A stretch of 64,000 bases of DNA, from contig CAXHZO010000012.1 of assembly GCA_964022095.1 (NCBI GenBank), positions 1-64,000 on the forward strand, in the 5' to 3' direction. Within the stretch, counting starts at the first letter, position 1; every line of letters starts with the position of its first letter. Positions 11,665-43,061 of this stretch are shown one piece after another. Origin of the DNA: an uncultured Arcobacteraceae bacterium. GTDB taxonomy: Bacteria; Campylobacterota; Campylobacteria; Campylobacterales; Arcobacteraceae. The notes under the pieces are model-generated. The model ran no database searches. It had not been told where the DNA came from and worked only from the letters and a program-made list of their open reading frames with translations. The translations under genes were made by a program, and so were the position numbers.

Positions 11665-14600
11665 AAATACTAAAAGTAAAATCACTAAATATAAACTCCC
11701 TAAAAGGTGAGTTTGAAATAGACTTTGAAAAGTTTTTACAAGATGAATCACTTTTTGCTATTACAGGACCTACTGGTGCTGGTAAAAGTACTATCTTAGA
11801 TATCATAACTTGTGCTATGTATGGACGAACTGCAAGACTTCAAAGCCCACCAAATGAACTTATGAGTAGACACACGGGTGAGTGTCTTTGTGAAGTTGAG
11901 TTTGAAGTAAAAAATCAAAAATATAGAAGTTCATGGAGTCAAAAAAGAGCTAGAAAAAGTGCAGATGGAAACTTCCAAACTGCAAAGATGGAAATAGTAG
12001 AAATATCTACAAACAAAGTAATAGAATCAAAACTTAGAGTTGTTCCAAAATATATAGAAAACTTATCGGGACTTGATTTTGATAGATTTATTCAATCTAT
12101 GATGTTAGCCCAAGGAAGTTTTGATGCATTTTTAAAAGCAAAAGAAAATGAGCGTTCAAGTTTACTTGAAAAAATCACGGGAACATATATCTATAAACAA
12201 ATCTCAAAAGAGATTTACGATACATATTCACAAAAAAACAAAGAGATAGAAAACGATACTATCGCAATAGGAAGTATCGAGTTATTAGATTCTGAAATAT
12301 TGGAAGAAAAAACAAAACACCTAAATGAACACAAAACAAAAAAACAAGAACTAGACAAAAAAGAAAAAGAGCTAAAAACTATATCTTCATGGCTTGAAAA
12401 CCTGCAAAAACTAGAAGCCGATGATATAAAATATACTTTTGAGTTCGAGCAAATATCAAAAGAAAAAGAAGATAAAAAAGAAGACTTCTTACGCCTTGAG
12501 TTATCTCAAAAAGCCCTAAGAATACAACCAATAAGCCAAGAGAAAAACTCACTTGAAATCTCTATAAATCAAGACAAAAATAGACTTCAAACTCTAAGTA
12601 CTGAACAAACAAGTTTAAAAGAAACACTAAAAAACACAAAAATAGAGCAAAACGCTACAAATGAACTTTTGCAAAAAGAAAAAATATCATTTGAGAAAAA
12701 TAGTACCAAACTAAAAGAGCTAAGAGATATACAATCTCAAATCAAAAGTAAAACAAATCAAAACCAAGAACTACAAAACAAACTTTTAAAACTAAAGCAA
12801 GATTTAGCCAATCTATTTGGTATAGATATAAATAGTTTATTATCAGATGACACCTTGATAAATCAAAATCTAAATAAACAAAACCAAGAACTACAAACTC
12901 TTAAAACAAACCTAGAATCAATAACAAGCAAATACAAGCAAATAGAAGAAAAAACATCAAGCCTAACACTTCAAGAGAGTAAAACAAGATCAAAACTTAG
13001 ACAACTAGAAGAGCTTTTAAAATCACTTGATGAATACAATATTTTAGTAGAAAATATAAAATCAGAACAAGAACTACAAAAACAGTACTTACAAGAAACA
13101 GACTCAATAAAAGCCATAAATACTCAAAAAGAAAAACTAATAAACCAAATAAACCAAACCTTAGAAACACTAAAAGAAAAAAGAGACACAGAACTTCTAA
13201 TAAAAAACTACGAAGAAGATAGAGCCAAACTAAAAGATAATCAAGAGTGCTTTTTATGTGGCTCAAAAGAGCATCCATATGTAAACCATAGTTTACAAAT
13301 AGATACAGATGCCACAACACAAAAAATCAAAGAGCAAGAAACACTATTATCAAGTGAAAATGATGAACTAAACGAAAGCAAAATAAACCTAGCCAAACTA
13401 AACTCAAAACTAGAATCATCTACTCTAGAAGTAGAAAAAATCAAAACCAAAAAAGATGAAATAGAAGAGTTTTTTACTACTTGTAGATTCAAACAAGATG
13501 ATGACTCAAAAGCAAAACTACTTGAAGAAATAGAGCAAAAAGAAAAAGAGTTAGAACAAATAGTAGTATTAAGAGAGCAAAAAGATAGCTTATCACTACA
13601 AAAAGAGAATCTACAAGCTAAATACAACTCTTTAGAGCAATCACAACTAAAAACAAAAACTCTAATCACTTCAAACAATGACTTACAAATAGAACTAACA
13701 ACAATAAGCGATGAGATACAAAACTTGCAAAACAAAAGCAAGAGTATCTTAGATATAGATGATATAAATAGTTTTGAAGTCTCTATTACCAAAAGTTTTA
13801 ATTCAATACAAGAAAAACACAACACAATACAAAACACACTATCAACACTAAACTCAAAAGATGAGTCACTAGTAAAACAAATAGAAGAGCTAAACACAAA
13901 AAAACAAAACGATAGCAAAACACTAATAGAACTAGAAGGGAAGTTTCAAGCTGCACTACAAGAGTATAACTTCACTTCAAAGCAAGAGTTTGAAAAAAAT
14001 CTCATACCAAAAGATGAATACGAAAAACTAAACCAGTCATGCAAAAGCATAGAAGACAGATACACACAAATAAATACACTAAAAACAGACACAACAAACA
14101 AACTAAAAGAGCAAAAAGAACTAAAACTAAGTATTAGAAAACTAGAAGAAGTAAATGAAGAGTTAAACACACTACAAACTTCAATAGATGAACTTCAAAA
14201 ATCAATAGGAAGTATCGAAACACAACTAGAAATAAACGCTACAAATAGAAAAAAACACGAAGATAAAATAGCCCAACTAGAAAAGAAAAAAGAGTCTTTT
14301 AAAGTATGGGTAAAACTAAATGAAATGATAGGCTCAAGCCAAGGGGACAAGTTCGCAAAATTTGCTCAAGGTATCACACTAGACCAGCTAATCTACCTAG
14401 CAAACAAACACCTAAAAATCTTAAGCCCAAGATATGAACTCCAAAGAGCCACAGAATCAAATAAACTACTAGAAATAGAGATAATCGACGGTTTCCAAGG
14501 TGATGTATCAAGACCTGTAAGTACACTATCAGGAGGGGAGGGCTTCATAGTAAGTCTATCTTTAGCCTTAGGATTATCAAGTCTAGCAAGTCAAAAGATA

Positions 14601-14807
14601 AGTATAGATTCACTTTTCTTAGATGAAGGGTTTGGAACACTAGATAGCGATAGCTTAGAGTTAGCACTAAATGCACTAAATCAACTACAAAGTTCAGGAA
14701 AGATGGTAGGTGTGATTTCCCATGTGGAAGCACTAAAAGAGCGAATTCCATTGCAGATAAAGGTTGAGCCTAAAGGTGATGGGACGAGTGGGTTGGATTT
14801 GAATTAG
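11661..14807 (+). CDS. sbcC: Exonuclease SbcCD subunit C (Rad50-like SMC ATPase)
   Basis: Walker A GPTGAGKS, zinc hook CFLCGS, signature LSGGE, Walker B LFLDEGFG, long coiled coil. Confidence 0.97.
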   Translation: MKILKVKSLNINSLKGEFEIDFEKFLQDESLFAITGPTGAGKSTILDIITCAMYGRTARLQSPPNELMSRHTGECLCEVEFEVKNQKYRSSWSQKRARKSADGNFQTAKMEIVEISTNKVIESKLRVVPKYIENLSGLDFDRFIQSMMLAQGSFDAFLKAKENERSSLLEKITGTYIYKQISKEIYDTYSQKNKEIENDTIAIGSIELLDSEILEEKTKHLNEHKTKKQELDKKEKELKTISSWLENLQKLEADDIKYTFEFEQISKEKEDKKEDFLRLELSQKALRIQPISQEKNSLEISINQDKNRLQTLSTEQTSLKETLKNTKIEQNATNELLQKEKISFEKNSTKLKELRDIQSQIKSKTNQNQELQNKLLKLKQDLANLFGIDINSLLSDDTLINQNLNKQNQELQTLKTNLESITSKYKQIEEKTSSLTLQESKTRSKLRQLEELLKSLDEYNILVENIKSEQELQKQYLQETDSIKAINTQKEKLINQINQTLETLKEKRDTELLIKNYEEDRAKLKDNQECFLCGSKEHPYVNHSLQIDTDATTQKIKEQETLLSSENDELNESKINLAKLNSKLESSTLEVEKIKTKKDEIEEFFTTCRFKQDDDSKAKLLEEIEQKEKELEQIVVLREQKDSLSLQKENLQAKYNSLEQSQLKTKTLITSNNDLQIELTTISDEIQNLQNKSKSILDIDDINSFEVSITKSFNSIQEKHNTIQNTLSTLNSKDESLVKQIEELNTKKQNDSKTLIELEGKFQAALQEYNFTSKQEFEKNLIPKDEYEKLNQSCKSIEDRYTQINTLKTDTTNKLKEQKELKLSIRKLEEVNEELNTLQTSIDELQKSIGSIETQLEINATNRKKHEDKIAQLEKKKESFKVWVKLNEMIGSSQGDKFAKFAQGITLDQLIYLANKHLKILSPRYELQRATESNKLLEIEIIDGFQGDVSRPVSTLSGGEGFIVSLSLALGLSSLASQKISIDSLFLDEGFGTLDSDSLELALNALNQLQSSGKMVGVISHVEALKERIPLQIKVEPKGDGTSGLDLN

Positions 14808-14817
14808 AAGGAAATGA

Positions 14818-16746
14818 ATGTATTTAAAAAGTCTTAAGATAGAGAATTTTAGAAAATTTGAAAAAATAAATGTAGAGTTTACAAAAGGTTTAAATCTTCT
14901 TGTAGGTGAAAATGATGCAGGAAAGACAGCAATTATAGATTCAATTAAATATGTTTTGCAGACTCAAAGTTTTGATTATATTAGACCTTCTTATGAAGAT
15001 TTTTATCTAAAGCCTGAAGACAACGAAATTAATAGAACAAATGAATTTTATATTGAATGTATTTTTGAAGATTTAAAACCTTATGAAGCAAGTAGTTTTT
15101 TAGAGTGGCTAGGACTTGATGATGAAGGGAAAAGCTATTTAAAAATTTGGCTAATAGCAAAAAGAAATGATAGAAAAATATCTTATGAAATTAGAGCGGG
15201 AGCAGATGATGAAGGAAATCAATTAAATGGTGAATCACGAGATTATCTGAGAGTAATATATTTAAAAGCATTAAGAGATGCAGAAAGTGAGCTAACTCCT
15301 AAAAAAGGTTCAAGACTTTCTCAAATACTTGATAGTCACGAACATTTTGAAAATAAAGAAGAACATAAGCTAAAAGAAATAATGGAAAAGACTAATGAAG
15401 AAATTGAAAAATACTTTTCTGAAGAAGACGGTAAAGAATTATTAGAAGATTTAAACACTTATTTAAAAAGTTTCTCATTATCAACAAATGAATTAAAAAG
15501 TAAATTCTTAATGAGTGGCAGTTCTTTAAAATCTATTCTTGAAAAACTTTCATTAAAACTTTTTAATCATGAAGTTTCTGAAAATAACTCTCAAGGTTTA
15601 GGTTCTCATAATTTGTTATATATTGCAGCAGAGCTTTTATTACTGAAGAAATTAGATTATGCAGGATTAAAATTAGGACTTGTAGAAGAAATTGAAGCAC
15701 ATCTTCATCCTCAAACTCAAATTAAACTTATTGAAGCAATTCAAGATATTGGAGAATCTAATGATATTCAATTTATTATGACGACACATAGTCCAAATTT
15801 AGCTTCGAAAATAAAACTTAGTAATTTGATTATTGTAAGAAATGGGAATACTTATTCTATGGGTAGTAGTTTTACTAAACTTGAAAAAGGAGATTATTAC
15901 TTTTTAGAAAGATTTTTAGATTCAACTAAGGCAAACTTATTTTTTGCAAATGGAGTAATATTAGTCGAAGGTGATGCAGAAAATATATTATTACCAACAA
16001 TAGCAAAATTGATGGGTAAAAGTTTATCTAATTATGGAGTTAGTATAGTTAATGTTGGAAGTGTTGCATTTTTACGATATTCGAATATTTTTCTAAGACA
16101 GTCAGAACCACATTTTATTACTCCTATTGCAGTAGTAACTGATGTAGATGTAAAACCATTTAAAAGTAAAGAAAAACTTTCTTTAAAAATAGAAAAAATA
16201 AGTAACTTTTCAATATCTGATAAGTTATTGATTTTGCCCCAAAAAATAGTAAGGAAAAAAACAAAATTTTATATTGAACGTGATTACAAATTTGAAGAAG
16301 TTGAAATTAAAAGAAATAATACTATAGCGGAAAAAAATACAAAATATGACGAAGAAAAAGTTAAATCTTTTATCGCACCATTTTGGACACTAGAATATAC
16401 ACTAGCTTTAAGTAATTTATCACCATTATTTTATCGAGCAGTATATATTTGTAAAAAAACAAAGTCACGAGATTATGTTTATACAAATGTAGAAAAAACA
16501 ACTTTTATACAAGAATCGGATATTGAATATGATGGATGGATAACATCTGGAAAAAATATAGAAGAAATTGCTTTTATAATTTATAATGATACTATGATAA
16601 AAAAAACTAATCCTCTTTCAAAAGCAGTTGTTGCTCAAGTATTTGCTCAAATTTTAGATGAAACAGATTTAACTTTATACGATATAAACTCAGATGATAA
16701 ATTAAAGTATTTAGTTGATGCAATAAACTATGTAACTGGAAGTTGA
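14818..16746 (+). CDS. gajA: OLD-family ATP-dependent endonuclease (Gabija GajA-like)
   Basis: Walker A GENDAGKT, EEIEAHLHP, TTHSP; TOPRIM ILVEGDAE and DVD; TLE motif; followed by a UvrD helicase. Confidence 0.88.
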   Translation: MYLKSLKIENFRKFEKINVEFTKGLNLLVGENDAGKTAIIDSIKYVLQTQSFDYIRPSYEDFYLKPEDNEINRTNEFYIECIFEDLKPYEASSFLEWLGLDDEGKSYLKIWLIAKRNDRKISYEIRAGADDEGNQLNGESRDYLRVIYLKALRDAESELTPKKGSRLSQILDSHEHFENKEEHKLKEIMEKTNEEIEKYFSEEDGKELLEDLNTYLKSFSLSTNELKSKFLMSGSSLKSILEKLSLKLFNHEVSENNSQGLGSHNLLYIAAELLLLKKLDYAGLKLGLVEEIEAHLHPQTQIKLIEAIQDIGESNDIQFIMTTHSPNLASKIKLSNLIIVRNGNTYSMGSSFTKLEKGDYYFLERFLDSTKANLFFANGVILVEGDAENILLPTIAKLMGKSLSNYGVSIVNVGSVAFLRYSNIFLRQSEPHFITPIAVVTDVDVKPFKSKEKLSLKIEKISNFSISDKLLILPQKIVRKKTKFYIERDYKFEEVEIKRNNTIAEKNTKYDEEKVKSFIAPFWTLEYTLALSNLSPLFYRAVYICKKTKSRDYVYTNVEKTTFIQESDIEYDGWITSGKNIEEIAFIIYNDTMIKKTNPLSKAVVAQVFAQILDETDLTLYDINSDDKLKYLVDAINYVTGS

Positions 16747-16747
16747 A

Positions 16748-18643
16748 ATGATTCAGATTACAGATAATCATATAGAAGAATTTGAAAATAGATTTGAAAA
16801 CTTATCTTTTGATGCTGAAAGTAGAGCATTTATAAAATGTATAGAGTCAAAGGATATACAAGCTTGCCCAGGAGCCGGAAAAACTACTTCCTTAGTTGCT
16901 AAGCTAGATATTATTGCTTCACAAATGCCTTTTAAAGATAATAGTGGTGTTTTGGTGTTAACTCATACAAATGTTGCAGTTGATGAAATAAAAAAGAAAT
17001 TAGGATTAAATGCAAAAATATTACTTTCCTATCCGAATCATATTGGGACATTTCAATCTTTTGTCAATAAGTTTTTAGCGATACCTATGTATGTAAATAT
17101 TTTTGGAAAAAAGCCTGAAAGAATAGATTATGATTTATTTAATGAAAAACTATTACATAAACTCAATAAATATTATTTAAATAACTTTATACCTCAAAGT
17201 GCAGAAGCAAATAAGTATACGAGTTTAGAAGGTTTTATTAATGCCTTAACTGTAGAAGAAAATAGAATTAGTTTACCTCAGGCAGGAGGAAGAAGTAAAA
17301 CTATCGTAAATAGAGGAAAGCCTTCTTTTAGAAATATTAAAAGAGCAAAAGATGAAAATATAATAAGGCAAGTTGTATCAGATGGCTATTTAGCTTATCA
17401 TCATTGCTATGATTTAGCTAACAAATATTTGGATGACTATTCTAATATGAAAGAAGTTTTTCAAAAAAGATTTAAATATGTATTTATTGATGAAGTGCAA
17501 GATACTGATAATAATCAATTTGAAATCATAGATAAACTATTTTCAGGTAGTGATGTGATTATTCAAAAAATTGGTGACAAAAATCAAGAAATATTTTCAA
17601 ATTTAAAAACACAAGCTAATGGTTGGGAAGTGGGAAGTGATGCTTTAGAAATAAAAAATACTAAAAGATTATCGTCTATTATATCTGAGAAAGTAAGTCA
17701 TTTTGCAATTAATCCCCAAGAATTAAATGGTAATAACGAAATACAGATTCAACCCAGAATACTACTATTTGATGAGAAAAATATTGGAGAATTAGTTCTT
17801 CAAAAATTTGGTGATTTAATTTTTGAAAATAATTTACAAGATTTGAGTAATTCAAAGTTTAAAGCAATTGGTGCAGTAGGTAAAGTCCATGAAAGTAAGA
17901 TTACAATACCTGATTATTTTCCTTCTTTTAGTAAAAATGACAATAGGTCTTTAGAATATGAAACTTTAGTTGAAAAGATAGATTTGTTTGACAAAAAAAA
18001 GATACGAGTAAAAGACTACAGGAAAATTTTGCTAGATGTTATTATTGAGTATCTTAAAACTGAAGATATTAAATATAATGATAAATACTTTTCAAAAAAT
18101 TTGTTATTGAACTATTTAAAAGAGAAAGATAAACTACAATACAAGCTTTTCAAGTTAAAGCTATTTGAAGGTGTTAAAAAACTTTCAATAAGTGAATGTG
18201 TGTTTGATATTCTAAAAGAAAAAGTAGAAATAGTATTAGAATTATTAGGAAGTAGTTTTAATGAATCTGTCTTAGTAAATATAATAAAAAACTACAAAAT
18301 AGATTTATTACAAAAAACAACTCAAGATAAATATATTTATAGTAATTCAGATACTACATTTGATATTGAAATATCAACTATTCATAAAGTTAAAGGCGAA
18401 ACACATACTGCAACATTAATACTTGAATCTTTTAATAGAACATATGATTTACAACAACTCTTAAAATTATTAAAAGGACTGTCATTAAGAACTAGTAATA
18501 CGATTGATTTAAAAAAGAAATTACTATATGTAGCTATGTCTCGACCCACACATTTATTGTGTTTTGCAATGAATAAAGAACATGTTAAAAGTAATGATAT
18601 TAGTGAGCTTGAAGAGTGTGGATTTATAATAGAGGAAATTTAA
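16748..18643 (+). CDS. gajB: UvrD/Rep-family helicase (Gabija GajB-like)
   Basis: ACPGAGKT, LTHTN, IDEVQD, IGDKNQ, TIHKVKGETH, LYVAMSR; starts 1 nt after the gajA-like stop. Confidence 0.88.
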   Translation: MIQITDNHIEEFENRFENLSFDAESRAFIKCIESKDIQACPGAGKTTSLVAKLDIIASQMPFKDNSGVLVLTHTNVAVDEIKKKLGLNAKILLSYPNHIGTFQSFVNKFLAIPMYVNIFGKKPERIDYDLFNEKLLHKLNKYYLNNFIPQSAEANKYTSLEGFINALTVEENRISLPQAGGRSKTIVNRGKPSFRNIKRAKDENIIRQVVSDGYLAYHHCYDLANKYLDDYSNMKEVFQKRFKYVFIDEVQDTDNNQFEIIDKLFSGSDVIIQKIGDKNQEIFSNLKTQANGWEVGSDALEIKNTKRLSSIISEKVSHFAINPQELNGNNEIQIQPRILLFDEKNIGELVLQKFGDLIFENNLQDLSNSKFKAIGAVGKVHESKITIPDYFPSFSKNDNRSLEYETLVEKIDLFDKKKIRVKDYRKILLDVIIEYLKTEDIKYNDKYFSKNLLLNYLKEKDKLQYKLFKLKLFEGVKKLSISECVFDILKEKVEIVLELLGSSFNESVLVNIIKNYKIDLLQKTTQDKYIYSNSDTTFDIEISTIHKVKGETHTATLILESFNRTYDLQQLLKLLKGLSLRTSNTIDLKKKLLYVAMSRPTHLLCFAMNKEHVKSNDISELEECGFIIEEI

Positions 18644-19107: not shown

Positions 19108-19843
19108 ATGAATGAATTGATAATCGATGAAGATATAAAAATAAAATATATACCATAAGAGGTATGCAAGTTATTTTGGATAGAGACTTAGCAGAGTTGT
19201 ATCAAGTAAAAGCGATAAGGCTTAGGGAACAAGTAAAAAGAAATATTGAGCGTTTTCCAGAAGATTTCATGTTTCAACTTACAGAGAAGGAAGTAGAAAC
19301 CATGGTATCGCAAAATGCGATACCTTCAAAACAACACTTGGGTGGTAGTTTGCCTTATGCATTCACAGAACAAGGCGTTTCTATGTTAAGTGCAGTACTT
19401 AAAAGTGATATAGCAATAAAAATAAGTGTAGAAATAATAAGAACCTTTGTTAATATGAGAAAAGTTATCTCAACTAATAGTTTGATATATCAAAGATTGG
19501 ATACCCTAGAAAAGAAACAAATATCAAATGATGAAAAATTCGAGAAACTACTTAATGCTTTAGAAGATAAGTCTTTAAAACCAAAGCAAGGGATTTTTTA
19601 CGATGGACAAATGTTTGATGCTTATACTTTAAACAATTGAATCTCGACCTTAAAAAGTATAATTCTCAATATAAAAAAATACAAATAAAAAAGTTTGAAA
19701 ATTCTCATGATAGATTTTTGATATTAGATGATAATGAAATTTATCATATAGGAGCAAGTCTAAAAGACTTAGGCAAAAAATGGTTTGCTTTTTCTAAGAT
19801 GGATTTAAAAAGTTTTGATGTTTTAGAAAGATTGGAAAAGTAA
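19108..19843 (+). pseudogene. ORF6N-domain DNA-binding protein, frameshifted and internally deleted
   Basis: ATG 19108 frame joins IYTIRGMQVILDRDLAELY only if one A is added near 19140; the break at ~19630 jumps from FDAYT to the C-terminal HDRFLILD...HIGASLKDLG segment in another frame. Confidence 0.8.
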
Positions 19844-24396: not shown

Positions 24397-25665
24397 ATGA
24401 ATTTTTCAAATAATAAACCAAAGGTATATTTTAAAACATTTGGTTGTAGAACAAACGTTTTTGATACTCAAGTAATGATGAGTAATCTAAAAGATTTTGA
24501 AATAACACAAGATGAGAAAACAGCAGATGTAGTTGTAATAAACTCATGTACAGTTACAAATGGTGCAGATAGTACTGCTCGTGGATATATAAATGGACTT
24601 AAGAAGCTTCCAAAAGACCCAAGAGTTGTATTTACTGGATGTGGTGTTTGGACAAAGGGTGAGAGTCTATTTAAAGAAGAAAAAATAGATTCACTTTTTG
24701 GTCATAGCGAAAAAGAAAATATCAATGAATTACTAAAAAGTGAAGAGAGATTTTTCCAAGCTGGTGATTTAGAACATATTGATGAAACTATCGTTGAAGA
24801 GTTTGTTGGTAAAAGTAGGGCATTTATCAAAATCCAAGAAGGATGTGACTTTAGATGTTCATATTGTATTATTCCTTATGTAAGAGGTGATGCAAGAAGT
24901 TATAAAGAAGATAAAATTTTAGAGCAAGTTACAACACTAGCAGCTAATGGTTTTGGTGAATTTATTTTAACGGGAACAAATGTAGGAAGTTATGGTAAAA
25001 AACAACACACTTCTTTAGCAAAACTTCTTAAAAAAATGTCTCAAATAAAAGGTGTTAGACGTATACGAATGGGAAGTATTGAACCTATTCAAATTGATGA
25101 TGAGTTCAAAGAAATCATTAATGAACCATTTATGGCAAAACACCTTCATATCGCACTTCAACATACTTCTAAAGATATGTTGAAAATTATGAATAGAAGA
25201 AATAAAGTTTTATCTGACTTAGAATTATTTGAATTTTTAAGAGACAATGGATATGCCTTAGGGACAGATTTTATAGTTGGGCATCCAGGTGAAACTGATG
25301 AATTATGGAAAGAAGCTATGGAAAATCTTCATAAATTTCCATTAACTCATGTTCATGCCTTTACTTATTCAAAAAGAGATGGAACACCAAGTGCAACAAT
25401 GAAACCAGAAATTAGAGGTGATGTTGCTAAAATTAGATACAATGAACTAACGAAAATAATTGAACAGAAAAATATAGATTTTAGAAAAAATAATACTAAA
25501 ACACTAGAAGTTTTAATAGAACAAGAAAAAAATGGAAAATATATAGGATTAGATCAATTCTTTAATCAAATAGAAGTGGAATCACCAGTTGATATAACAG
25601 GAGATTGGATTTTTATTGATGATTACGAAGTAAAGAGTGATAAAAATGTTGCAAAATTCAAATAA
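24397..25665 (+). CDS. mtaB: tRNA (t6A37) methylthiotransferase MtaB
   Basis: TFGCRTN, INSCTVT, radical SAM CDFRCSYC, HAFTYS.R.GT. Confidence 0.93.
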   Translation: MNFSNNKPKVYFKTFGCRTNVFDTQVMMSNLKDFEITQDEKTADVVVINSCTVTNGADSTARGYINGLKKLPKDPRVVFTGCGVWTKGESLFKEEKIDSLFGHSEKENINELLKSEERFFQAGDLEHIDETIVEEFVGKSRAFIKIQEGCDFRCSYCIIPYVRGDARSYKEDKILEQVTTLAANGFGEFILTGTNVGSYGKKQHTSLAKLLKKMSQIKGVRRIRMGSIEPIQIDDEFKEIINEPFMAKHLHIALQHTSKDMLKIMNRRNKVLSDLELFEFLRDNGYALGTDFIVGHPGETDELWKEAMENLHKFPLTHVHAFTYSKRDGTPSATMKPEIRGDVAKIRYNELTKIIEQKNIDFRKNNTKTLEVLIEQEKNGKYIGLDQFFNQIEVESPVDITGDWIFIDDYEVKSDKNVAKFK

Positions 25666-27127
25666 CAAAAACGATAATAAGAACATAGACAAAAACTTTA
25701 AACTTATGGCTTTATCTGCCATAGTTTTATTGATTTTATTTTTATATACAATTTATAAAAGTAGTGTACATATACAAAGTAGTTCATACTATGTGGGTGT
25801 ACTGTTTTTATTTATTTTACTTTTTTTAGCATTGGTTTTAAAAGCTAATCAAGATAAAGTAAGAAAGTTTTTAAATAAAGGCAAGCCTACAAAGTCTGCT
25901 TTTAACGAAGAGCTTGTAAAAACACGAGCTTCTGTTTCAAATGAAGAGTTAAATACTTCTATCTCTTCTGTAACTTCAAACGTAACTTTTAAAGATATTG
26001 CAGGAATTGGTGAGATAAAAGAAGAACTAGAAGAAGTAGTTGAATTTTTAAATGAACCTAGTAAATATTTAAAATATGGTGTAAAATTACCAAAAGGTGT
26101 ACTTCTTGTAGGACCTCCAGGTGTTGGTAAAACACTTATAGCAAGAGCAGTAGCAGGTGAGGCTGATGTTCCGTTTTTCTATCAAAGTGGTGCTAGTTTT
26201 GTACAAATCTATGTTGGAATGGGTGCAAAAAAAGTACGTGAACTTTTTGCAAAAGCAAAACAAAGTGCCCCTGCAATAGTATTTATTGATGAAATCGATG
26301 CAGTTGGAAAAGCAAGAAGTGGTAAGTCAAATGATGAAAGAGAAGCTACTTTAAATGAACTATTAACTCAAATGGATGGATTTGATGGCGATAGTGGTGT
26401 TATTGTAATTGCGGCAACTAATAAGATTGAAGTACTTGATGATGCACTTTTAAGAGCAGGTAGATTTGATAGAAGATTACATGTTGGATTACCTAATGTT
26501 GAAGATAGAAAGAAGATTTTAGAACTATATTTACAAAATAAAAACCATGAATTAGATTTACATAAATTAGTAAATGACACAGCTGGATTTAGTTCAGCTG
26601 CACTTGCTACACTTATAAATGAATCAATGTTAAATATGATTAAAAGAGATTCAAAAATCTTAGATATGGATGATATAGAAGTAGCTAAAAATAAACTTGA
26701 ATTTGGTAAAAAACAAGTAAAAATTTTAGATGAAAAACAAAAAGAGATTTTATCTATTTATCAAGCAAGTAAAGCATATATTTCTAAAACAAAGGTAGCC
26801 TTATTTGATGAAAGTGTTGCTAAAAATAATTCAACTTATCCCTCTTATCAAGAGTTATGTGAAAATATAAAAAGAGATTTAGCAGGAATCATTGGTGTAG
26901 AAGTTCTTAAAAAAGAGAAATACGCAATAAATGAAAAAGATTTACAAAATGCAAAAAAAACCGCAACTGATATAGTTCAAACTTATGATATGGCAAATAG
27001 TATTGAAGATTTATTAGATGGTATAAAAAATGAACTTAGAGCTGAACTGTCTCAAAATAGTGCAGAAGTTAATAGATTAAAAAATATTATGATTCAAAAT
27101 GAGGTGATAACCCTTGAAGATATCTAA
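25637..27127 (+). CDS. Membrane-bound FtsH-like AAA ATPase lacking the HExxH protease motif
   Basis: Two TM helices, GPPGVGKT, FIDEIDAVG, LRAGRFDR; YQASK where FtsH has HEAGH. Confidence 0.88.
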   Translation: MIKMLQNSNNKNDNKNIDKNFKLMALSAIVLLILFLYTIYKSSVHIQSSSYYVGVLFLFILLFLALVLKANQDKVRKFLNKGKPTKSAFNEELVKTRASVSNEELNTSISSVTSNVTFKDIAGIGEIKEELEEVVEFLNEPSKYLKYGVKLPKGVLLVGPPGVGKTLIARAVAGEADVPFFYQSGASFVQIYVGMGAKKVRELFAKAKQSAPAIVFIDEIDAVGKARSGKSNDEREATLNELLTQMDGFDGDSGVIVIAATNKIEVLDDALLRAGRFDRRLHVGLPNVEDRKKILELYLQNKNHELDLHKLVNDTAGFSSAALATLINESMLNMIKRDSKILDMDDIEVAKNKLEFGKKQVKILDEKQKEILSIYQASKAYISKTKVALFDESVAKNNSTYPSYQELCENIKRDLAGIIGVEVLKKEKYAINEKDLQNAKKTATDIVQTYDMANSIEDLLDGIKNELRAELSQNSAEVNRLKNIMIQNEVITLEDI

Positions 27128-36264: not shown

Positions 36265-37065
36265 ATGAATAATATAAAAAAACAATTTTTAGGGTTTTAC
36301 TATACACCATCACTTTTTGAAAATATACTAGGTATAAATCAGTTTGAATTTGAAAATATAGATATAGGTAATATAAATATAGATATACAAATACAAAAGA
36401 AACTTCCATTAGGTAAAAGAATAGAGTATTTTTTTGAAGAGTATATAAAGCATAGTAGTAAATATGAATTAAAGTATAAGAATATACAAGTAATAAAAGA
36501 TAAAAATACATTAGGTGAAATTGATTTTATTTTATATGATAAAGCTAATAAGAAGTATATACACACAGAACTTGTATACAAATACTACTTATATGATACT
36601 AGTTTTGAAAATGAGATAGATAGGTATATAGGGCCAAATAGAAATGATACATTAGTCAAGAAACTAAATAAACTAAAAGAAAAACAGTTCCCACTACTTT
36701 TTAATGATCAAACTAAACAGTATATAGATATAGACTTTAGCAATATATATCAAAATAACTCTTTTAAGGCAAATATATATCTTCCATACAAAAAAGATGT
36801 AAATATAAATATAGTTAATAAAAAGTGTGTAAAAGGTTTTTATATAAATTTTGAACAGTTTAAGAAAGAAGATGAGTTTAAAAACTATAAATACTATTTA
36901 CCACATAGATATGATTGGGTTAGTAGTATAGATAAACAAATACAATACATAGAGTATGAAGAGTCATTAAAGTATATAGAGTATTTCTTAAATCTTAAAA
37001 AATCACCATTAGTATGGCTAAAAGATGATGAGGTATACAAAGAGTTCTTTATTACTTGGTGGTAG
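36265..37065 (+). CDS. DUF1853 family protein (PD-(D/E)XK-like)
   Basis: LGKRIEYFF, TLGEIDF, HTELVYKYYL, IGPNRND. Confidence 0.85.
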   Translation: MNNIKKQFLGFYYTPSLFENILGINQFEFENIDIGNINIDIQIQKKLPLGKRIEYFFEEYIKHSSKYELKYKNIQVIKDKNTLGEIDFILYDKANKKYIHTELVYKYYLYDTSFENEIDRYIGPNRNDTLVKKLNKLKEKQFPLLFNDQTKQYIDIDFSNIYQNNSFKANIYLPYKKDVNINIVNKKCVKGFYINFEQFKKEDEFKNYKYYLPHRYDWVSSIDKQIQYIEYEESLKYIEYFLNLKKSPLVWLKDDEVYKEFFITWW

Positions 37066-37133: not shown

Positions 37134-38234
37134 ATGACAGTTATAGAATTATTTCAAAAATTATTAAGATTTAAATCTGTTACACCTGATGATGATGGAG
37201 CATTTGATTTTATACAGGAGTATCTAGGTGATACTTGGGAATGTATCAGTGTTGATATGGAAGGTGTTAAAAATAGATTTTATTATAAAAAATTTAATGA
37301 CAATCCTCAGCACTTATGTTTTGCAGGACATATAGATGTAGTACCTCCAGGTGAAGGTTGGGATGTAGATCCATTTGCAGCTGATATTGTTGATGGAGTT
37401 ATTACTGCACGTGGTACACAAGATATGAAAAGTGGAGATGCTGCTTTTTTATATGCTTGTAAGCATGCAGTTAATTTTGATGGGACACTTAGTATTCTTA
37501 TGACTTCTGATGAAGAAGGTGAAGGAACATATGGAACTATCAAGATGTTAGAACATCTAAAAGAAATAGATTTTATTCCTCAATATGCAGTAGTAGCAGA
37601 ACCAACTTGTGAAGAAGTTTTTGGAGATGCTATTAAAGTAGGGCGAAGAGGTAGTATAAATGGATATATTACTATAAAAGGTAAACAAGGACATGCAGCT
37701 TACCCTGAGAAGTGTATAAATCCAGTACATAACTTCGCTGAGGTTTTACCAAGAATTGCAGGGCATAACTTAGATAATGGAGATGAATATTTTTCACCTA
37801 GTAAAATGGTTATGACAGATATTAGAGGTGGAATGGAAGTTACAAATGTAACTCCACCAAACCTAAAACTAATGTTCAATGTGAGAAATTCAACAAATAC
37901 TACAAGAGAAAGTGTTGAAGAGTTTATTCATAAAAACCTAGAAGGTTTAGAATATGACTTTAGAACAACTCAAGGTTCATTTCCTTTTGTTACAAATAAA
38001 GAGTCAAAAGTAGTAAAAGCAATGGAAAATTCAATCAAAGAAATAACAGGTGTTACTACAAAACATAGTACAGCAGGTGGAACTAGTGATGCTAGATATT
38101 TTGGTAGCTTTGGAATAGAAGCTATTGAATTTGGTGTTATAAATGATACTATTCATAGTGTTGGTGAAAGAACTACTGTAAAAGAAGTAGAAGACTTAAC
38201 AGCTGTTTATGTGGATTTGATTGAGAAGTTTTAA
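37134..38234 (+). CDS. dapE: Succinyl-diaminopimelate desuccinylase
   Basis: FAGHIDVVP, RGTQDMK, SDEEG, VGRRGS, QGHAAYP, GGTSDAR. Confidence 0.97.
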   Translation: MTVIELFQKLLRFKSVTPDDDGAFDFIQEYLGDTWECISVDMEGVKNRFYYKKFNDNPQHLCFAGHIDVVPPGEGWDVDPFAADIVDGVITARGTQDMKSGDAAFLYACKHAVNFDGTLSILMTSDEEGEGTYGTIKMLEHLKEIDFIPQYAVVAEPTCEEVFGDAIKVGRRGSINGYITIKGKQGHAAYPEKCINPVHNFAEVLPRIAGHNLDNGDEYFSPSKMVMTDIRGGMEVTNVTPPNLKLMFNVRNSTNTTRESVEEFIHKNLEGLEYDFRTTQGSFPFVTNKESKVVKAMENSIKEITGVTTKHSTAGGTSDARYFGSFGIEAIEFGVINDTIHSVGERTTVKEVEDLTAVYVDLIEKF

Positions 38235-38246
38235 GAGGAATAGAAA

Positions 38247-38645
38247 ATGGAAGATAACTTAACAAGATGTAGACAAAGATTTACAAACTATGAAAAATCA
38301 TTGAGACATCTTGAAACTACTGTTGAAAAAGATGTTTTGAACGAGATAGAAAAAGCAGGATTAATACAGTTTTTTGAGGTAACTTTCGAGTTAGCTTGGA
38401 AAGTAATGAAAGATTTTCTCACAGCTGAGGGATATGAAGTAAAAAGTCCAAGAGCTAGTATAAAAACAGCCTTTGAATACGGACTAATAGAAAATGGAAC
38501 TTTATGGCTTGAAGCTCTTGAAAAAAGAAATCTTGCATCACACACTTATGATGACCAAATACTTGATGAACTAGAAGAGTTGATAATAAACTCTTACTAT
38601 CATATCTTAGAAGAGTTCAAAGAAGCTATAAAGAAAAAGCTATGA
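38247..38645 (+). CDS. HEPN-domain nucleotidyltransferase substrate-binding protein (HI0074-like)
   Basis: GLIQFFEVTFELAWK, SPR, HEPN R-X4-H motif RNLASHTY. Confidence 0.92.
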   Translation: MEDNLTRCRQRFTNYEKSLRHLETTVEKDVLNEIEKAGLIQFFEVTFELAWKVMKDFLTAEGYEVKSPRASIKTAFEYGLIENGTLWLEALEKRNLASHTYDDQILDELEELIINSYYHILEEFKEAIKKKL

Positions 38646-38938
38646 TAGGACTTACACAAAAAGAGCTAGAGGTATTAGAAAAAGTATTTAAAAAGTTTAA
38701 TAAACTAGAAGAAATAATACTTTTTGGCTCAAGAGCTTTAGGTACACATAAAAAAGCTTCTGATATAGACCTAGCAATAAAAGGTGATGTAGATATAAAT
38801 ACCTTGGCAAAACTAAAATACACACTTGAAGAAGATACTTTACTTCCATACTTCTTTGATATAGTTATATATGATAATCTTGAAAATGAAGAGCTTAGAA
38901 AGCATATTGATGAGTTTGGAAAAGTTATATTTAAATAA
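38642..38938 (+). CDS. Minimal nucleotidyltransferase (MNT, HI0073-like)
   Basis: LFGSRALG...SDIDLAI and FDIV motifs; ATGA overlap with the HEPN gene. Confidence 0.92.
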   Translation: MIGLTQKELEVLEKVFKKFNKLEEIILFGSRALGTHKKASDIDLAIKGDVDINTLAKLKYTLEEDTLLPYFFDIVIYDNLENEELRKHIDEFGKVIFK

Positions 38939-38966
38939 AATGATAAGTATTTAAAGGTAGTCTATA

Positions 38967-41900
38967 ATGAATAATTATATCGTTCAAAATATGACAAGAT
39001 ATTTGAATATAGAACATTTTTCTCAAATATTTAATAATGACTATGTATCTTATTTTGATGAAAGAATAACTAAACCAGATTTTAAAGAATTATATAATTC
39101 TAAATATTTAATGCTTGTTGCTGAACCAGGTTATGGAAAAACAAGACTTTTTAAAGAACTTGTTTTAAGAGCAAATGAAAATGACCTAAAAGTATTTTTC
39201 ATTGATGCAAAACAAATTAAAAATTCAATAAAAGAAAATATAGAAAAATGCAAAGTTATTGAATCTAATATTTCTGAAGAAAAATTACAAAAAAAGATTT
39301 ATTTTTGCAATAAAGAAGATTATATATTAGATGATAAAACTATTATTTGTTTAGATGCTCTTGATGAATTACCTTTTTCAAACCTTTATAGTTTTTTTGA
39401 GCAAGTTGAAGAGTTTATAATTGATAATCCAAATATAAAAGTATTTTTATCTTGTAGAACCCATCATTTAAATAAGATAGAATATGATTTATCCAACATT
39501 TCATTTGAATATTTAACTTTAGACAAATTTTATGGAAAACAAGTTTTTAATTATCTAAAAAATAAAAATATTGATGATGAAACAATTGAAAAAATAAAAG
39601 AAAAAACAAAATTAGGAAATCTATTTGATTTTTTATTAATTCCAAGATTTTTATACTATTTTAGTGAATTAATTCAAAATAAAAACATTGAAGAGATAAT
39701 AAACTTATCAAGAAGTGAAATTTTTGAAGATTTTATATATAGAAAAATTGATAAAGAAAGAGATAAAAAGTATCCAGAATCTGAAAATCATACTATAAAA
39801 AGAGTTTTAGAAGAATTAGCATTAGTAATGAAGATTTTTCAAGTTTCTCAAATCAGTAAAGATGATTTTTTTACAATCTTTAAAGAGCTTAATCTAGGAA
39901 ATATTTTTACAGGAAAAGGACTAATAGAGAAACTATGTGATAAAAGTCTTCTAAAAGATAATATAGACTATTTAGAATTTGAAAACCAAGAGTTTTTAGA
40001 TTATTTGGCTTCAAAAGAATTGAGACGTTATGAAAAAGTTGAACAAGTTTTTTTTGATATTGCACTAGAACCATACCTGAAAGAAATATATACACCTTGG
40101 TTTTATGTAATGCCTTTTGTATTAGAACAAAATCTAAATATGGTAAGCATCCTTTTGGATTTTTTAGAGAAAAACTCTAATAAAATTTTACAAGAAGAAT
40201 ATTTTAAAATATTAATAAGTGTTGATAGTAAATTCTTAGACGTAAAGACTAGATTAAAAATATTTGATTTAGTTTTTAATTACAACATTGAACATAATCA
40301 GTGGATGTACCCTTATTTAGATAATTTAATCTATTTTTATGATGAGAAAGAACACTATCAAAAAATAATAGATTCAATAAATGGTGATGTTGAAACTAAT
40401 AATATAAAAATCCGAAATTCAATAGATATAATTGAGAGTTTGTGTAAAAAAGAGCTTATTAAAGCTGAACAAATAGAGTTTTGGAAAGAAAAGTTTTTAG
40501 AATGGCTAAGGCTTGATGTAAAAAAATTTAGGAATTTACATCAAGCGATAGTTTCAAGTTGTCCAGCAATTATGAAAAATGATTTTGATTGGATAAAAAA
40601 GATATATTTTATATTTGAAACAGGTATAAATGTACAATATGAATACGCAAGAACTTGTTATAAAATTGCTCCAAATGATAATTTAAGTATAGATATATAT
40701 TTTAATTGTGAAAAACAATTTAAAAAAAATAAGATAGATAATATTGGAAGAATTGATGGTAATGTAAAATATATTTCAAAAGTGGATAGTTTAGATGGAA
40801 TAAGGTATATTTTAGAAAAATTGACTTCATCAAATTGGAAAGAATATTTAAGTTATATTTTTAGTACAAGTTATAGAAGTAAATTTCAAGATGATTTAGA
40901 GCAATTGATTTTAAACATTAGAAGTAATCTAAATGATGAAATTATTGAATTATTAAAAATTTTATTGATAAAAATTGTGAAATTAAAAATTAAATATGAA
41001 GAATATAGTAAATATTTACTTCAACAAATATTTAAAATTTTAATTGAGAAAGAAATAAATTTCTTAAGTTTATTTATTGATGAACTTTATAAATTATATG
41101 AAAACAAAGAATTATATTATTTTGATTTTGAATATATTATTGAGACAGAATTATCAAAATATTTTAATAATAAAAATTTTGATGAAATATACAAAAAATT
41201 AATAACTTTTAAATTTGAAAAAAGAAATATTGATGATTTACTTATTTACTCACTTTTTTTTAATGAAAGAGTTAATAAAAAAGTAAAAAATAAAATTGAA
41301 AAAATTTATAAAAAAGAATTAAAAGTAATTGAAAAAGATAGAGAAAAGTTAAAAAATAAAAATGCACGAGATTTAAAAAATAAACAATTAGGTTTATTTA
41401 GACAGTGGGAACATAAATTAGAACCAGAAGTAGGAAAATTTGTTAAAGATTTATTTGAATTTTACATAAAGAATAAAGAAGCTTTAGAAAAATATGAGAA
41501 GTTTGAAGAGAATAGAACTAAAACTATTTTATGGGCTAAAAAAGTTATAAAGAATAATAATCCGTTAAATGGTAAAGTTGAAAAAAGTGGAAATAGCTCA
41601 ACTGTTTTTGGAATACTTTTTTATAAAGATGCCATAGAACTTTTATCTAAAGAAAATATTGAATTCACTACTGATGAACAAAATTTGATAGACAATGTAT
41701 TTAGGTACTTACCTTTTGATATAAATCGTGAATATGAAAGTACATTAAAACTTGCAAAAAAACCTTCACCACAAGCTATACAAGATATATTAGATGTTTA
41801 TGCTGGAGAAAAAAGGAAAGATAACTTAGATATATATCATCCTCAAAATTTTTTAGAAATTTATAAACAAACTAATATAAAGGAAGCAGAACCTATACTT

Positions 41901-43061
41901 TTAAAAATGCTTGAGAATTCTGAAATAGATGAATATATTCGTAAAGAAATTATTCAGGTCCTACCTAAAGAAATATTAACTCAAGATATTATAGTTAAGT
42001 ATATAAAACAAAATGGTGAATCAGATATTTTATATGAAAAATTATTGATAAATTTAATTAAAAAATTTAATGATAAAGAATCAATCAGAAAAACATTTGA
42101 AATAGTTACTAAAAAAGGTAAAGAAACTAATATACCTGAATACCAAACTAATCTATTTGGAAGTGCATTAGACTTAGAATATGGATATTCAAATGAATTA
42201 GCACTAGAACTCACTCAAATAAATTATGATATTGAAGAAGATAAAAAGTTACTAGAAATAGCTTTAGACTTAAGGAATAAAGGTAAACATGTTAATGGAT
42301 ATTTTTTTGAAGAGATTGTATTTAGACATATAAAATATTTAAATCATAAAAAAACATTTGAACCTTTAATTGAAATTGAAAAGTTCCTTCAAGAAAAAAG
42401 TTCTCATAAAAACTTATATTCTTTTGAATATAGGTTCAAAGAATTAAAACAAATATATTTAGATAATTTATCAAAACCGAAACATATAATGGAAGCAATT
42501 AAAGCATATAAAAAATCAAAAAAGAGTGAATATATTACGGTTAATTCTTCTTTACATTTATTAGAGATTGTAAAAGATAGTATTTCAAATGAAATTAGAA
42601 ATTGGATTGAAGTTGAAGGTGCTTATAAACATATTGGAGAATTATCAAAAAAAGATACAAATACAAATGCTGAAGATTTTATACAAAAAACAATAAAAAC
42701 TCAAATTGAACTAGGTTTAGTAAAAAAAGGTTTAAGACATACAGATATTAAAATTAAAAGGGAAGAACAAACTTTAGATGATAAAAGAGCAGATTTTACA
42801 ATAAATTATGGTTTTATTGGTCAAGTATTATTAGAATTAAAATTATCACATAATTCAGAATCAAAACCAACACGAAAAGATGGAAAAGATTATAAAGAAA
42901 AATTAATTAAGTATATAGGTGCTACAAATTCTGATTATGGGTTATTTATAATTTTTAACACTAAAGAAAATAAAATAGTTTTTGAAAGACAAATAAAAGC
43001 TTTAGTAAAATTTTATGAAGATAATGAAAATATATTTGTATTAGGAATTAATTGCTTATAA
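38967..43061 (+). CDS. STAND/NACHT-like NTPase with C-terminal PD-(D/E)XK-type nuclease domain
   Basis: Walker A AEPGYGKT, Walker B CLDALDE, sensor LSCR, winged-helix FENQEFLDYLAS; C-terminal AEDFIQ...KRADF...LLELK. Confidence 0.8.
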   Translation: MNNYIVQNMTRYLNIEHFSQIFNNDYVSYFDERITKPDFKELYNSKYLMLVAEPGYGKTRLFKELVLRANENDLKVFFIDAKQIKNSIKENIEKCKVIESNISEEKLQKKIYFCNKEDYILDDKTIICLDALDELPFSNLYSFFEQVEEFIIDNPNIKVFLSCRTHHLNKIEYDLSNISFEYLTLDKFYGKQVFNYLKNKNIDDETIEKIKEKTKLGNLFDFLLIPRFLYYFSELIQNKNIEEIINLSRSEIFEDFIYRKIDKERDKKYPESENHTIKRVLEELALVMKIFQVSQISKDDFFTIFKELNLGNIFTGKGLIEKLCDKSLLKDNIDYLEFENQEFLDYLASKELRRYEKVEQVFFDIALEPYLKEIYTPWFYVMPFVLEQNLNMVSILLDFLEKNSNKILQEEYFKILISVDSKFLDVKTRLKIFDLVFNYNIEHNQWMYPYLDNLIYFYDEKEHYQKIIDSINGDVETNNIKIRNSIDIIESLCKKELIKAEQIEFWKEKFLEWLRLDVKKFRNLHQAIVSSCPAIMKNDFDWIKKIYFIFETGINVQYEYARTCYKIAPNDNLSIDIYFNCEKQFKKNKIDNIGRIDGNVKYISKVDSLDGIRYILEKLTSSNWKEYLSYIFSTSYRSKFQDDLEQLILNIRSNLNDEIIELLKILLIKIVKLKIKYEEYSKYLLQQIFKILIEKEINFLSLFIDELYKLYENKELYYFDFEYIIETELSKYFNNKNFDEIYKKLITFKFEKRNIDDLLIYSLFFNERVNKKVKNKIEKIYKKELKVIEKDREKLKNKNARDLKNKQLGLFRQWEHKLEPEVGKFVKDLFEFYIKNKEALEKYEKFEENRTKTILWAKKVIKNNNPLNGKVEKSGNSSTVFGILFYKDAIELLSKENIEFTTDEQNLIDNVFRYLPFDINREYESTLKLAKKPSPQAIQDILDVYAGEKRKDNLDIYHPQNFLEIYKQTNIKEAEPILLKMLENSEIDEYIRKEIIQVLPKEILTQDIIVKYIKQNGESDILYEKLLINLIKKFNDKESIRKTFEIVTKKGKETNIPEYQTNLFGSALDLEYGYSNELALELTQINYDIEEDKKLLEIALDLRNKGKHVNGYFFEEIVFRHIKYLNHKKTFEPLIEIEKFLQEKSSHKNLYSFEYRFKELKQIYLDNLSKPKHIMEAIKAYKKSKKSEYITVNSSLHLLEIVKDSISNEIRNWIEVEGAYKHIGELSKKDTNTNAEDFIQKTIKTQIELGLVKKGLRHTDIKIKREEQTLDDKRADFTINYGFIGQVLLELKLSHNSESKPTRKDGKDYKEKLIKYIGATNSDYGLFIIFNTKENKIVFERQIKALVKFYEDNENIFVLGINCL

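Follow-up and report, generated by a model that had tools for sequence, protein, structure and literature searches.

The gene described here occupies positions 38967..43061 of the forward strand in a 64,000-nucleotide stretch of contig CAXHZO010000012.1 (assembly GCA_964022095.1) from an uncultured Arcobacteraceae bacterium, and this whole stretch is called the window in what follows. Its product, a single protein of 1364 amino acids that we refer to as P0001, consists of three modules, namely an N-terminal NACHT nucleoside triphosphatase (NTPase), a long helical sensor and a predicted C-terminal nuclease of the PD-(D/E)xK kind. It is our belief, at a probability of roughly 0.68, that P0001 acts as a stand-alone anti-phage pattern-recognition receptor of the NLR/Avs type, which would sense a phage protein, oligomerise and then cut DNA. 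In particular, its sequence suggests a new member of an already known type, the Erebus/Hypnos/Avs10 NACHT-nuclease antiphage proteins, within which its sensor forms a distinct branch. The gene is, in other words, a plausible defence gene and not a new kind of system. The features of the gene are the following.

38967..43061 (stop codon in range), + strand: whole open reading frame (ORF) of P0001, ATG start, 1364 amino acids, single-gene NACHT-sensor-nuclease protein
38967..40136, + strand: NACHT NTPase with helical and winged-helix subdomains, about residues 1-390 (AlphaFold2 model, Foldseek, hhalign)
39120..39143, + strand: Walker A or P-loop, AEPGYGKT, residues 52-59; G55, G57 and K58 invariant in 45 sequences
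39342..39368, + strand: extended, NACHT-type Walker B, IICLDALDE, residues 126-134; D130, D133 and E134 invariant
39450..39458, + strand: SCR, residues 162-164; R164 invariant, candidate sensor-1 arginine
40137..42536, + strand: all-helical solenoid sensor, about residues 391-1190, with a beta hairpin at 870-881 (AlphaFold2 secondary structure)
42537..43058, + strand: PD-(D/E)xK-like nuclease domain, candidate effector, about residues 1191-1364
42672..42674, + strand: E1236 (in AEDFIQ), acidic residue opening the core helix; model residue 137 in helix 136-154; invariant
42792..42794, + strand: D1276 (in KRADF), the 'D' of the PD motif; model residue 177, directly before strand 178-182; invariant
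42834..42842, + strand: E1290-L-K1292 (in LLELK), the ExK motif; model residues 191-193 in strand 187-194; invariant

Motifs and fold of the three modules

A sequence-only reading of this DNA had earlier proposed an NTPase-sensor-nuclease order for the protein, and the two structural models described below, of residues 1-1200 and 1100-1364, reproduce that order. The motifs named in that reading are in place as well. Namely, the Walker A motif had been put about 50 residues from the N-terminus, and since its lysine, K58, lies only 58 amino acids from the start, there is no room for an N-terminal effector. The Walker B is indeed of the NACHT type, with invariant acidic residues, while the sensor and winged-helix motifs are found as SCR and as LEFENQEFLDYLASKEL (residues 336-352, re-translated from coordinates). 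The general patterns GxxGxGK[ST] for the P-loop and hhhhD[GA]xDE for the extended Walker B both match P0001. The arginine of SCR is taken for sensor 1 from its position behind a beta strand in the model. In an alignment of 45 family members, with identities down to 25%, the invariant positions are G55, G57, K58, D130, D133, E134 and R164 in the NTPase part and E1236, R1265, E1266, Q1268, D1276, E1290 and K1292 in the C-terminal part, where R1265 and E1266 form an adjacent pair; at the level of sequence, such invariance is far above what would be expected by chance.

An AlphaFold2 model of residues 1-1200, based on a 45-row alignment, reached a mean predicted local distance difference test score (pLDDT) of 86.3 and a predicted template modelling score of 0.72. 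Residues up to about 390 form in it an NTPase of the alpha/beta kind that includes helical and winged-helix parts, and this succession of nucleotide-binding, helical and winged-helix domains is the one known from solved NLRs. When the model was compared with the PDB using Foldseek, 100 matches were obtained at E <= 1e-3, the top ones being NLRC4 (7.6e-7), Avs3 (8.6e-7) and Avs4 (1.8e-6), followed by NOD2, NLRP9 and NLRP3, at a probability of 1.00 and with E values between 7.6e-7 and 1e-4 for the NLR and Avs matches named here. Judged by its modelled fold, the NTPase is an NLR-type NACHT module. The likeness to eukaryotic NLRs such as NLRC4, NOD2 and NLRP3, which are top matches, is limited to this NACHT fold: unlike them, P0001 has no leucine-rich repeats, CARD or PYD, and its nuclease effector is fused in cis.

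The stretch that follows had been described as about 850 amino acids of helical-looking sequence. It is almost entirely helix in the model, as anticipated, but its length is closer to 800 amino acids (391-1190). In pairwise comparisons within the family, NACHT modules are on average 44% identical and nucleases 50%, as against 28% and 34% for the two halves of the sensor, and between residues 651 and 800 no column reaches 80% conservation. In other words, the sensor is the least conserved and fastest-evolving module of the family, as expected of a module engaged in an arms race. Comparison of the P0001 sequence with solved structures gave nothing useful (best E of 0.24 with the single sequence), and the best match of the corresponding profile, at 0.015, was a designed repeat protein.

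The second model, of residues 1100-1364 (pLDDT 84.6), covers the C-terminal domain. It contains a helix (136-154), three strands (162-166, 178-182 and 187-194), a helix (205-220), another strand (225-232) and then one more helix and strand, and its residues E137, D177, E191 and K193 correspond to E1236, D1276, E1290 and K1292. One finds here the layout of a PD-(D/E)xK core, with the E at the start of the first helix, the D before strand 2 and the ExK in strand 3, so placed that the E...D...ExK motif read earlier from the sequence falls, invariant, on the proper elements of the model. Foldseek returned no PDB match for this model at E <= 0.001, the best being Nt.BspD6I at 3.2e-3, and the next were SfsA, Cas4 SSO0001, BstEII, MUS81 and R.BspD6I. 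In a VIA search, the C-terminal domain was covered by 31 of the 50 matches listed, with 13 of these 31 titled as restriction enzyme or nuclease, and the top rows were Can2 (7.8), VC1899 (7.8), CdiA-CT (7.5), BglII (7.5), BstYI (7.3) and LlaBIII (7.3). Most of the other matches, among them Can2, Card1, NucC, McrBC, SfsA, SduA and SgrAI, we also take to be nucleases. Because the structural matches are coherent and four invariant catalytic-type residues lie on the right elements, we accept a PD-(D/E)xK-like nuclease fold for the modelled domain, with confidence that is moderate if one goes by score and good if one goes by coherence.

Kinship with EruA, HyoA and Avs10

The two end modules of P0001 are homologous to those of EruA and HyoA, which NCBIfam describes as 'NACHT domain-containing antiphage protein' in models of 1318 positions (EruA, NF058535, equivalog cut-off 1000 bits) and 1430 positions (HyoA, NF058534, 1200 bits). 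The EruA model matches all 8 first-round homologues of P0001, and EruA and/or HyoA match 26 of 30 further family representatives. The scores in these 38 other members do not exceed 64.4 bits for EruA and 63.4 bits for HyoA, nowhere near the equivalog cut-offs, and the matches are confined to the NACHT end or to the C-terminal end (EruA positions 1140-1243, HyoA positions 1239-1388). Since the latter are C-terminal positions of the models, both named proteins carry a homologous C-terminal domain.

A closer comparison is possible through P0086, a protein of 1280 amino acids from another Campylobacterota genome, which scores 357.7 bits against EruA over model positions 8-769 and the C-terminus. 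An alignment of its family (A3, 25 of 64 matches) was used as an EruA-like bridge and compared, region by region, with the alignment of the P0001 family (A1) by hhalign. The NACHT modules matched at 98.4% probability (E of 5e-15, 283 columns) and the nucleases at 95.7% (E of 1e-8, 94 columns), with the R-E pair, the D and the ExK in register and with E1290-L-K1292 opposite E1209-C-K1211 of P0086, while sensor against sensor showed no similarity, the best probability being 5.8%. It follows from this comparison that the end modules are common to both families, while the sensors are not recognisably alike. By these sequence comparisons, P0001 is a relative of EruA and HyoA, but not an equivalog of either. 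The Pfam family PF28130 (DUF8371, Pfam 38.1) is precomputed on most homologues of both the P0001 family and the EruA-like family.

How unusual is it, then, for an effector of this kind to sit at the C-terminus? In PMC13581612 (Nature 2026), Avs10 stands for Erebus, Hypnos and bNACHT64 and is a sensor of major capsid proteins, in a collection of 589 clades and 684 sensor clusters. The source data of its Supplementary Fig. 13 include an effector-dead control, 'EhAvs10 E1263A-K1265A', and survival in the presence of the Pal001 capsid protein is given there as about 0.005-0.015 for wild-type EhAvs10 and 0.57-0.92 for this mutant. Residue 1263 is in all likelihood C-terminal, the models being 1318 and 1430 positions long, and because the double substitution inactivates Avs10, an effector of the ExK kind at the C-terminus has been validated already. 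The rarity that the sequence-only reading had implied for such an arrangement is contradicted by this case, an earlier example, validated by experiment, of a domain order that looks unusual at first sight.

P0001 shares with Avs10 the format of a single large protein (about 1300-1430 amino acids) with a P-loop near the N-terminus and no N-terminal effector, a long helical sensor in the middle and an ExK-type nuclease at the C-terminus, the NACHT and nuclease modules being homologous; going by motifs and models, its architecture is that of a NACHT-type STAND protein with a C-terminal ExK nuclease effector, as in Avs10. It differs in its sensor, which is not detectably similar within the family to the EruA-like sensor profile, and in the hosts of its family, which are mainly Campylobacterota, Bacteroidota, Patescibacteria and the like, as compared to enterobacteria in PMC13581612. 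Neither five homologue accessions nor the word 'Avs10' occur in six source-data files of that paper. We would suggest that such proteins, now annotated as 'NACHT domain-containing protein' or 'hypothetical protein', be renamed 'Avs-like NACHT-nuclease antiphage protein (putative)'.

If one goes by the names alone, EruA and HyoA would be the gene names belonging to Erebus and Hypnos. The original descriptions of Erebus, Hypnos and bNACHT64 are reportedly those of van den Berg et al. in 2024 and Kibby et al. in 2023. A literature search for EruA or HyoA as antiphage names gave no relevant paper among the matches listed, and one for bNACHT64 gave only the Nature 2026 paper and its preprints. As for a true EruA, none of 301 Campylobacterota genomes contained a protein above the cut-off (best 271 bits in that search, P0086 reaching its 357.7 bits as a whole protein); none of 401 genomes from the class of a metagenome-assembled genome labelled Gammaproteobacteria gave a match either, a result that is uninformative at their size of about 1 Mb. 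A tblastn search of plasmids with P0086 yielded matches in the NACHT region only, at 21-26% identity, all of them hypothetical or unannotated. Another EruA-like NACHT protein, P0087 (locus L015, 5920-9945, 1342 amino acids), scores 86.5 bits at EruA positions 4-305; its C-terminus has no visible ExK and shows instead a hydrophobic, transmembrane-looking stretch followed by Asn-rich low complexity, and its sequence may represent a different effector on an EruA-like chassis.

As to mechanism, the course of events that we propose leans on analogy with Avs1-4, Avs7 and Avs10, from which the ideas that it senses a protein, oligomerises, cleaves DNA and brings about abortive infection are all carried over. 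In the resting state, P0001 would be a closed, nucleotide-bound monomer with its nuclease kept inactive. Upon infection, the helical sensor (about residues 391-1190) would wrap a phage-made protein, and this binding would open the NACHT module (K58 in the P-loop, D133 and E134 in the Walker B), leading to nucleotide exchange and oligomerisation. Oligomerisation would in turn gather the C-terminal nuclease domains (E1236, D1276, E1290, K1292), which could then cut DNA indiscriminately, such that the phage is stopped and the cell probably killed or arrested in abortive infection. Avs1-4 and Avs7 are similarly built from a STAND NTPase, a helical sensor and a PD-(D/E)xK nuclease, in their case of the Cap4 or Mrr type, and the logic expected for P0001 by analogy, from protein binding through oligomerisation to DNA cleavage, is theirs. 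Unlike P0001, however, they carry the effector at the N-terminus (PMC13581612), and the NTPase clade of P0001 is closer to NACHT.

Spread of the family and competing explanations

The family is broad and its distribution patchy, with copies on plasmids and in the company of defence islands. We found 72 full-length-type homologues of P0001, at identities of 27-89%, and a phmmer search with residues 401-1364 against 1.84 billion representatives gave 323 matches at E <= 1e-3, 266 at <= 1e-10 and 128 at <= 1e-30, so that the family comprises at least 323 clusters at 50% identity. Among the 150 matches listed, the long ones (about 1280-1435 amino acids) nearly all match collinearly from near residue 400 onward up to the C-terminus; those that are short look like fragments, and no other architecture was seen among them. 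A scan of species-representative genomes revealed 84 relatives at 79 loci, in hosts that include Sulfurimonas, Sulfuricurvum, Arcobacteraceae, Nitrospirota, Planctomycetota, Actinomycetota, Victivallales, many Patescibacteria and Saccharibacteria and, from the Bacteroidota, Pedobacter, Mucilaginibacter, Chitinophaga and Pontibacter. Closer to home, the gene is present in one of the two genomes of its genus, in 4 of 151 genomes of the Arcobacteraceae and in 4 of the 133 of these that are of high quality. The Erebus/Hypnos-type design, with its effector at the C-terminus as opposed to the N-terminus in Avs proteins so far, is therefore not confined to enterobacteria and pseudomonads, but extends to AT-rich Campylobacterota, Arcobacter plasmids and many environmental phyla. 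Two such plasmids, of 133 kb each, carry copies with 61-65% identity, and on one of them (CP129951.1, L021, 2617-17877) the gene lies between a defence-type dGTPase (209 bits) and a DUF3800 protein followed by a PDC-S06 AAA ATPase (235 bits), the dGTPase and the PDC-S06-type ATPase being within 7 kb of it, in what looks like a plasmid defence cluster. There is no homologue in 50,697 phage records, which is neutral for a role in defence. In three relatives of 1402-1427 amino acids (P0222, P0234, P0283), the NACHT module is preceded at the N-terminus by an additional helix-turn-helix of the ClgR, BldC or excisionase kind.

To judge the company kept by distant relatives, the three nearest ORFs of at least 100 amino acids on each side of the gene were compared with PADLOC at E <= 1e-8. 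Matches were found for 27 of 108 neighbouring ORFs and at 13 of 18 loci, seven of the 27 being to 'PDC' candidate models only, and what was matched beside the relatives includes SIR2 + HerA, HEC-01A/B, DISARM DrmA/DrmB, Olokun OloA/OloB, Gabija GajA/GajB and a Type II methyltransferase. As a control, 5 of 58 window ORFs outside 38.2-43.1 kb match PADLOC, all of them in a cluster at 11.6-27.1 kb. This enrichment is supportive, although not proof. Together with the homology of the end modules to EruA and HyoA, the presence of defence systems beside distant relatives speaks for the anti-phage role that the sequence-only reading had put forward as a candidate.

That said, a number of observations weigh against this view of P0001. 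The difference between neighbours and control (one-sided Fisher p = 0.007) depends on a weak control, namely one genome, in which the window contains a Gabija island some 20 kb upstream of the gene, and on relatives that are not independent of each other; moreover, the 18 loci were hand-picked out of 79 for long flanks on both sides and diverse phyla, and 5 of the 18 have no PADLOC-matching neighbour. In the window itself, the immediate neighbours are a toxin-antitoxin-like pair and metabolic accessory genes, with no named defence system among them. In Pfam, P0001 scores below the cut-offs for both NACHT (PF05729, 15.2 versus 26.7 bits) and NPHP3_N (23.8 versus 24.8 bits), which is why the NACHT assignment is based on fold, motifs and relatives; of 8 homologues, one passes NACHT (P0033, 31.4 bits) and one nSTAND3 (P0070, 37.3 versus 27.2 bits). 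Against EruA, P0001 reaches 29.2 bits (E of 2.6e-7), over residues 38-88 only and far under the 1000-bit cut-off, and against HyoA it gives no match at E <= 0.1. Finally, PADLOC v2.0 finds no real match to P0001, just mad8 at 13.8 bits (E of 0.0073) in the P-loop region. The sequence-only reading had considered that the protein might match an already named system: this is so as far as the relationship to EruA and HyoA goes, but not at the level of family cut-offs or of PADLOC.

Could the gene then serve something other than defence? It might be a STAND regulator, a module for conflict or addiction among mobile elements (e.g. plasmid versus plasmid) or a decaying accessory gene, and the metabolic genes around it in the window, within a variable region of 13 kb without named defence neighbours, its occurrence on plasmids in Arcobacter and the five distant loci devoid of a defence neighbour would all agree with this. 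On the other hand, the ORF is intact, its catalytic residues are invariant in relatives from many phyla, homologues of both its end modules occur in validated antiphage proteins, and Gabija, DISARM and the other systems named above directly adjoin distant relatives, so we regard such a role as quite improbable. To our mind it is still a little less probable that P0001 works like McrBC or Type ISP enzymes, as an NTP-dependent, restriction-like enzyme whose C-terminal domain would read and cut foreign nucleic acid on a helical scaffold. Against this speak an NTPase that is NLR-type NACHT and neither a helicase nor a McrB-type GTPase, the related Avs10, which is switched on by a protein (PMC13581612), a variable solenoid of 800 amino acids, as is typical of protein-binding sensors, and the lack of a methyltransferase or specificity partner nearby in the window. 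What we consider the slimmest chance is a three-gene system including the two genes directly upstream, which are the following.

38247..38645, + strand: HI0074-family HEPN-like gene (Pfam NTase_sub_bind 128.8 bits; TIGR01987 102.9 bits)
38642..38938, + strand: Pol-beta-type nucleotidyltransferase (Pfam Polbeta 56.6 bits; match to PADLOC candidate PDC-S09)

From their sequences, these two genes look like a HepT/MntA-like (type VII) toxin-antitoxin pair. The genes lie on one strand with tiny gaps (38234 to 38247, a 4-nucleotide overlap at 38642-38645, and 38938 to 38967), and the nucleotidyltransferase matches a PADLOC candidate. The pair is, however, absent beside homologues in four other contexts (L018, L019, L020 and plasmid L021), for which reason it was rejected as a system component; furthermore, the architecture of the family is uniform and self-contained, and a gene for a HipA-type kinase occupies the same spot in the sister species, suggesting a hotspot of modules. 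A different matter is what P0001 would sense, provided that it is a receptor as we propose. One possibility, nested within that proposal, is that P0001 is a functional orthologue of Avs10, whose diverged sensor would still have the Avs10 fold and the HK97-fold major capsid protein as its target. This is in line with what P0001 and EruA/HyoA have in common, namely the module order, the two end modules and the length class (1364 amino acids, the models having 1318 and 1430 positions); according to PMC13581612, Erebus, Hypnos and bNACHT64 are merged into Avs10, so that this family is already broad; and helical-repeat sensors lose their sequence signal fast, the mean sensor identity being just 28-34% even within the P0001 family. 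Nonetheless, the comparison of the sensor with the EruA-like sensor profile reached 5.8% at best, and none of the 39 members scanned (1 + 8 + 30) has its best match to EruA or HyoA anywhere in the middle of these models, which makes us think this orthology unlikely. No PF05065 capsid gene was found in the source genome of P0001. As the sensor is not detectably EruA-like, the major capsid protein is not assumed to be the trigger. To a more novel reading we give somewhat less than even odds: P0001 would belong to a third, unnamed branch of the Erebus/Hypnos type, whose sensor has a different fold and recognises some conserved phage protein that is not the major capsid protein; this branch would reach even into the tiny genomes of Patescibacteria/Saccharibacteria. 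Since its sensor has diverged beyond recognition from the EruA type, the family offers an obvious place to look for a phage protein that acts as a new trigger, and such a branch, if real, would enlarge the set of bacterial pattern-recognition receptors by a new pair of sensor and trigger.

The insertion site and the gene in the window

The gene had been described as inserted after dapE. There is indeed an M20-peptidase gene upstream (37134..38234, by Pfam), putatively the dapE of that reading, but the HI0074/nucleotidyltransferase pair intervenes, and the variable part is about 13 kb long. Namely, collinearity with the sister species (L017), the only other genome of the genus, ends at window position 38191 and returns at 51178, and in between about 13 kb of the window are replaced by about 2 kb (L017 6405-8505) encoding the HipA-type kinase (405 amino acids) and a PEBP-family protein; it is therefore this whole region that varies, and not the NACHT gene alone. 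The difference in gene content suggests, as far as sequences can tell, a hotspot in which independent modules accumulate. Neither a tRNA gene nor an integrase was found at the borders of the region. In the remainder of it lie genes for a glyoxalase, GNAT, PhzF, a racemase, homocysteine methyltransferase, EamA and other products of this sort. In three other Arcobacteraceae genomes, the genes next to the homologues are unlike those in the window; two of these genomes, which belong to the same genus, share flanks with each other, and in one of the two an ORF6N protein matching PADLOC PDC-S05 adjoins the gene. The gene just upstream of the M20 peptidase, for a DUF1853 protein (36265-37065, 126 bits), is kept in the sister species and belongs to the core flank. 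Some 20 kb upstream there is a defence island, with an LmuB-like SMC ATPase (11661-14804, 58 bits), Gabija GajA (14818-16743, 710 bits) and GajB (16748-18640, 588 bits), an ORF6N-type PDC-S05 protein (19164-19637, 213 bits) and an IetA-like AAA ATPase (25637-27124, 149 bits).

The gene itself was rightly called very AT-rich, its guanine-cytosine content being 21.2% versus a mean of 27.4% (standard deviation 3.1) for the 58 other window ORFs of at least 100 amino acids, of which just one lies lower. In such AT-rich DNA, scans for promoters (45 promoter-like sites versus 59.8 expected) and terminators (none found) are uninformative. Weak tandem repeats within the gene, at 41264-41361 and 42029-42077 (periods of 33 and 24), show no separate feature beyond the coding sequence and correspond to Lys-rich, low-complexity sequence coding for helices.

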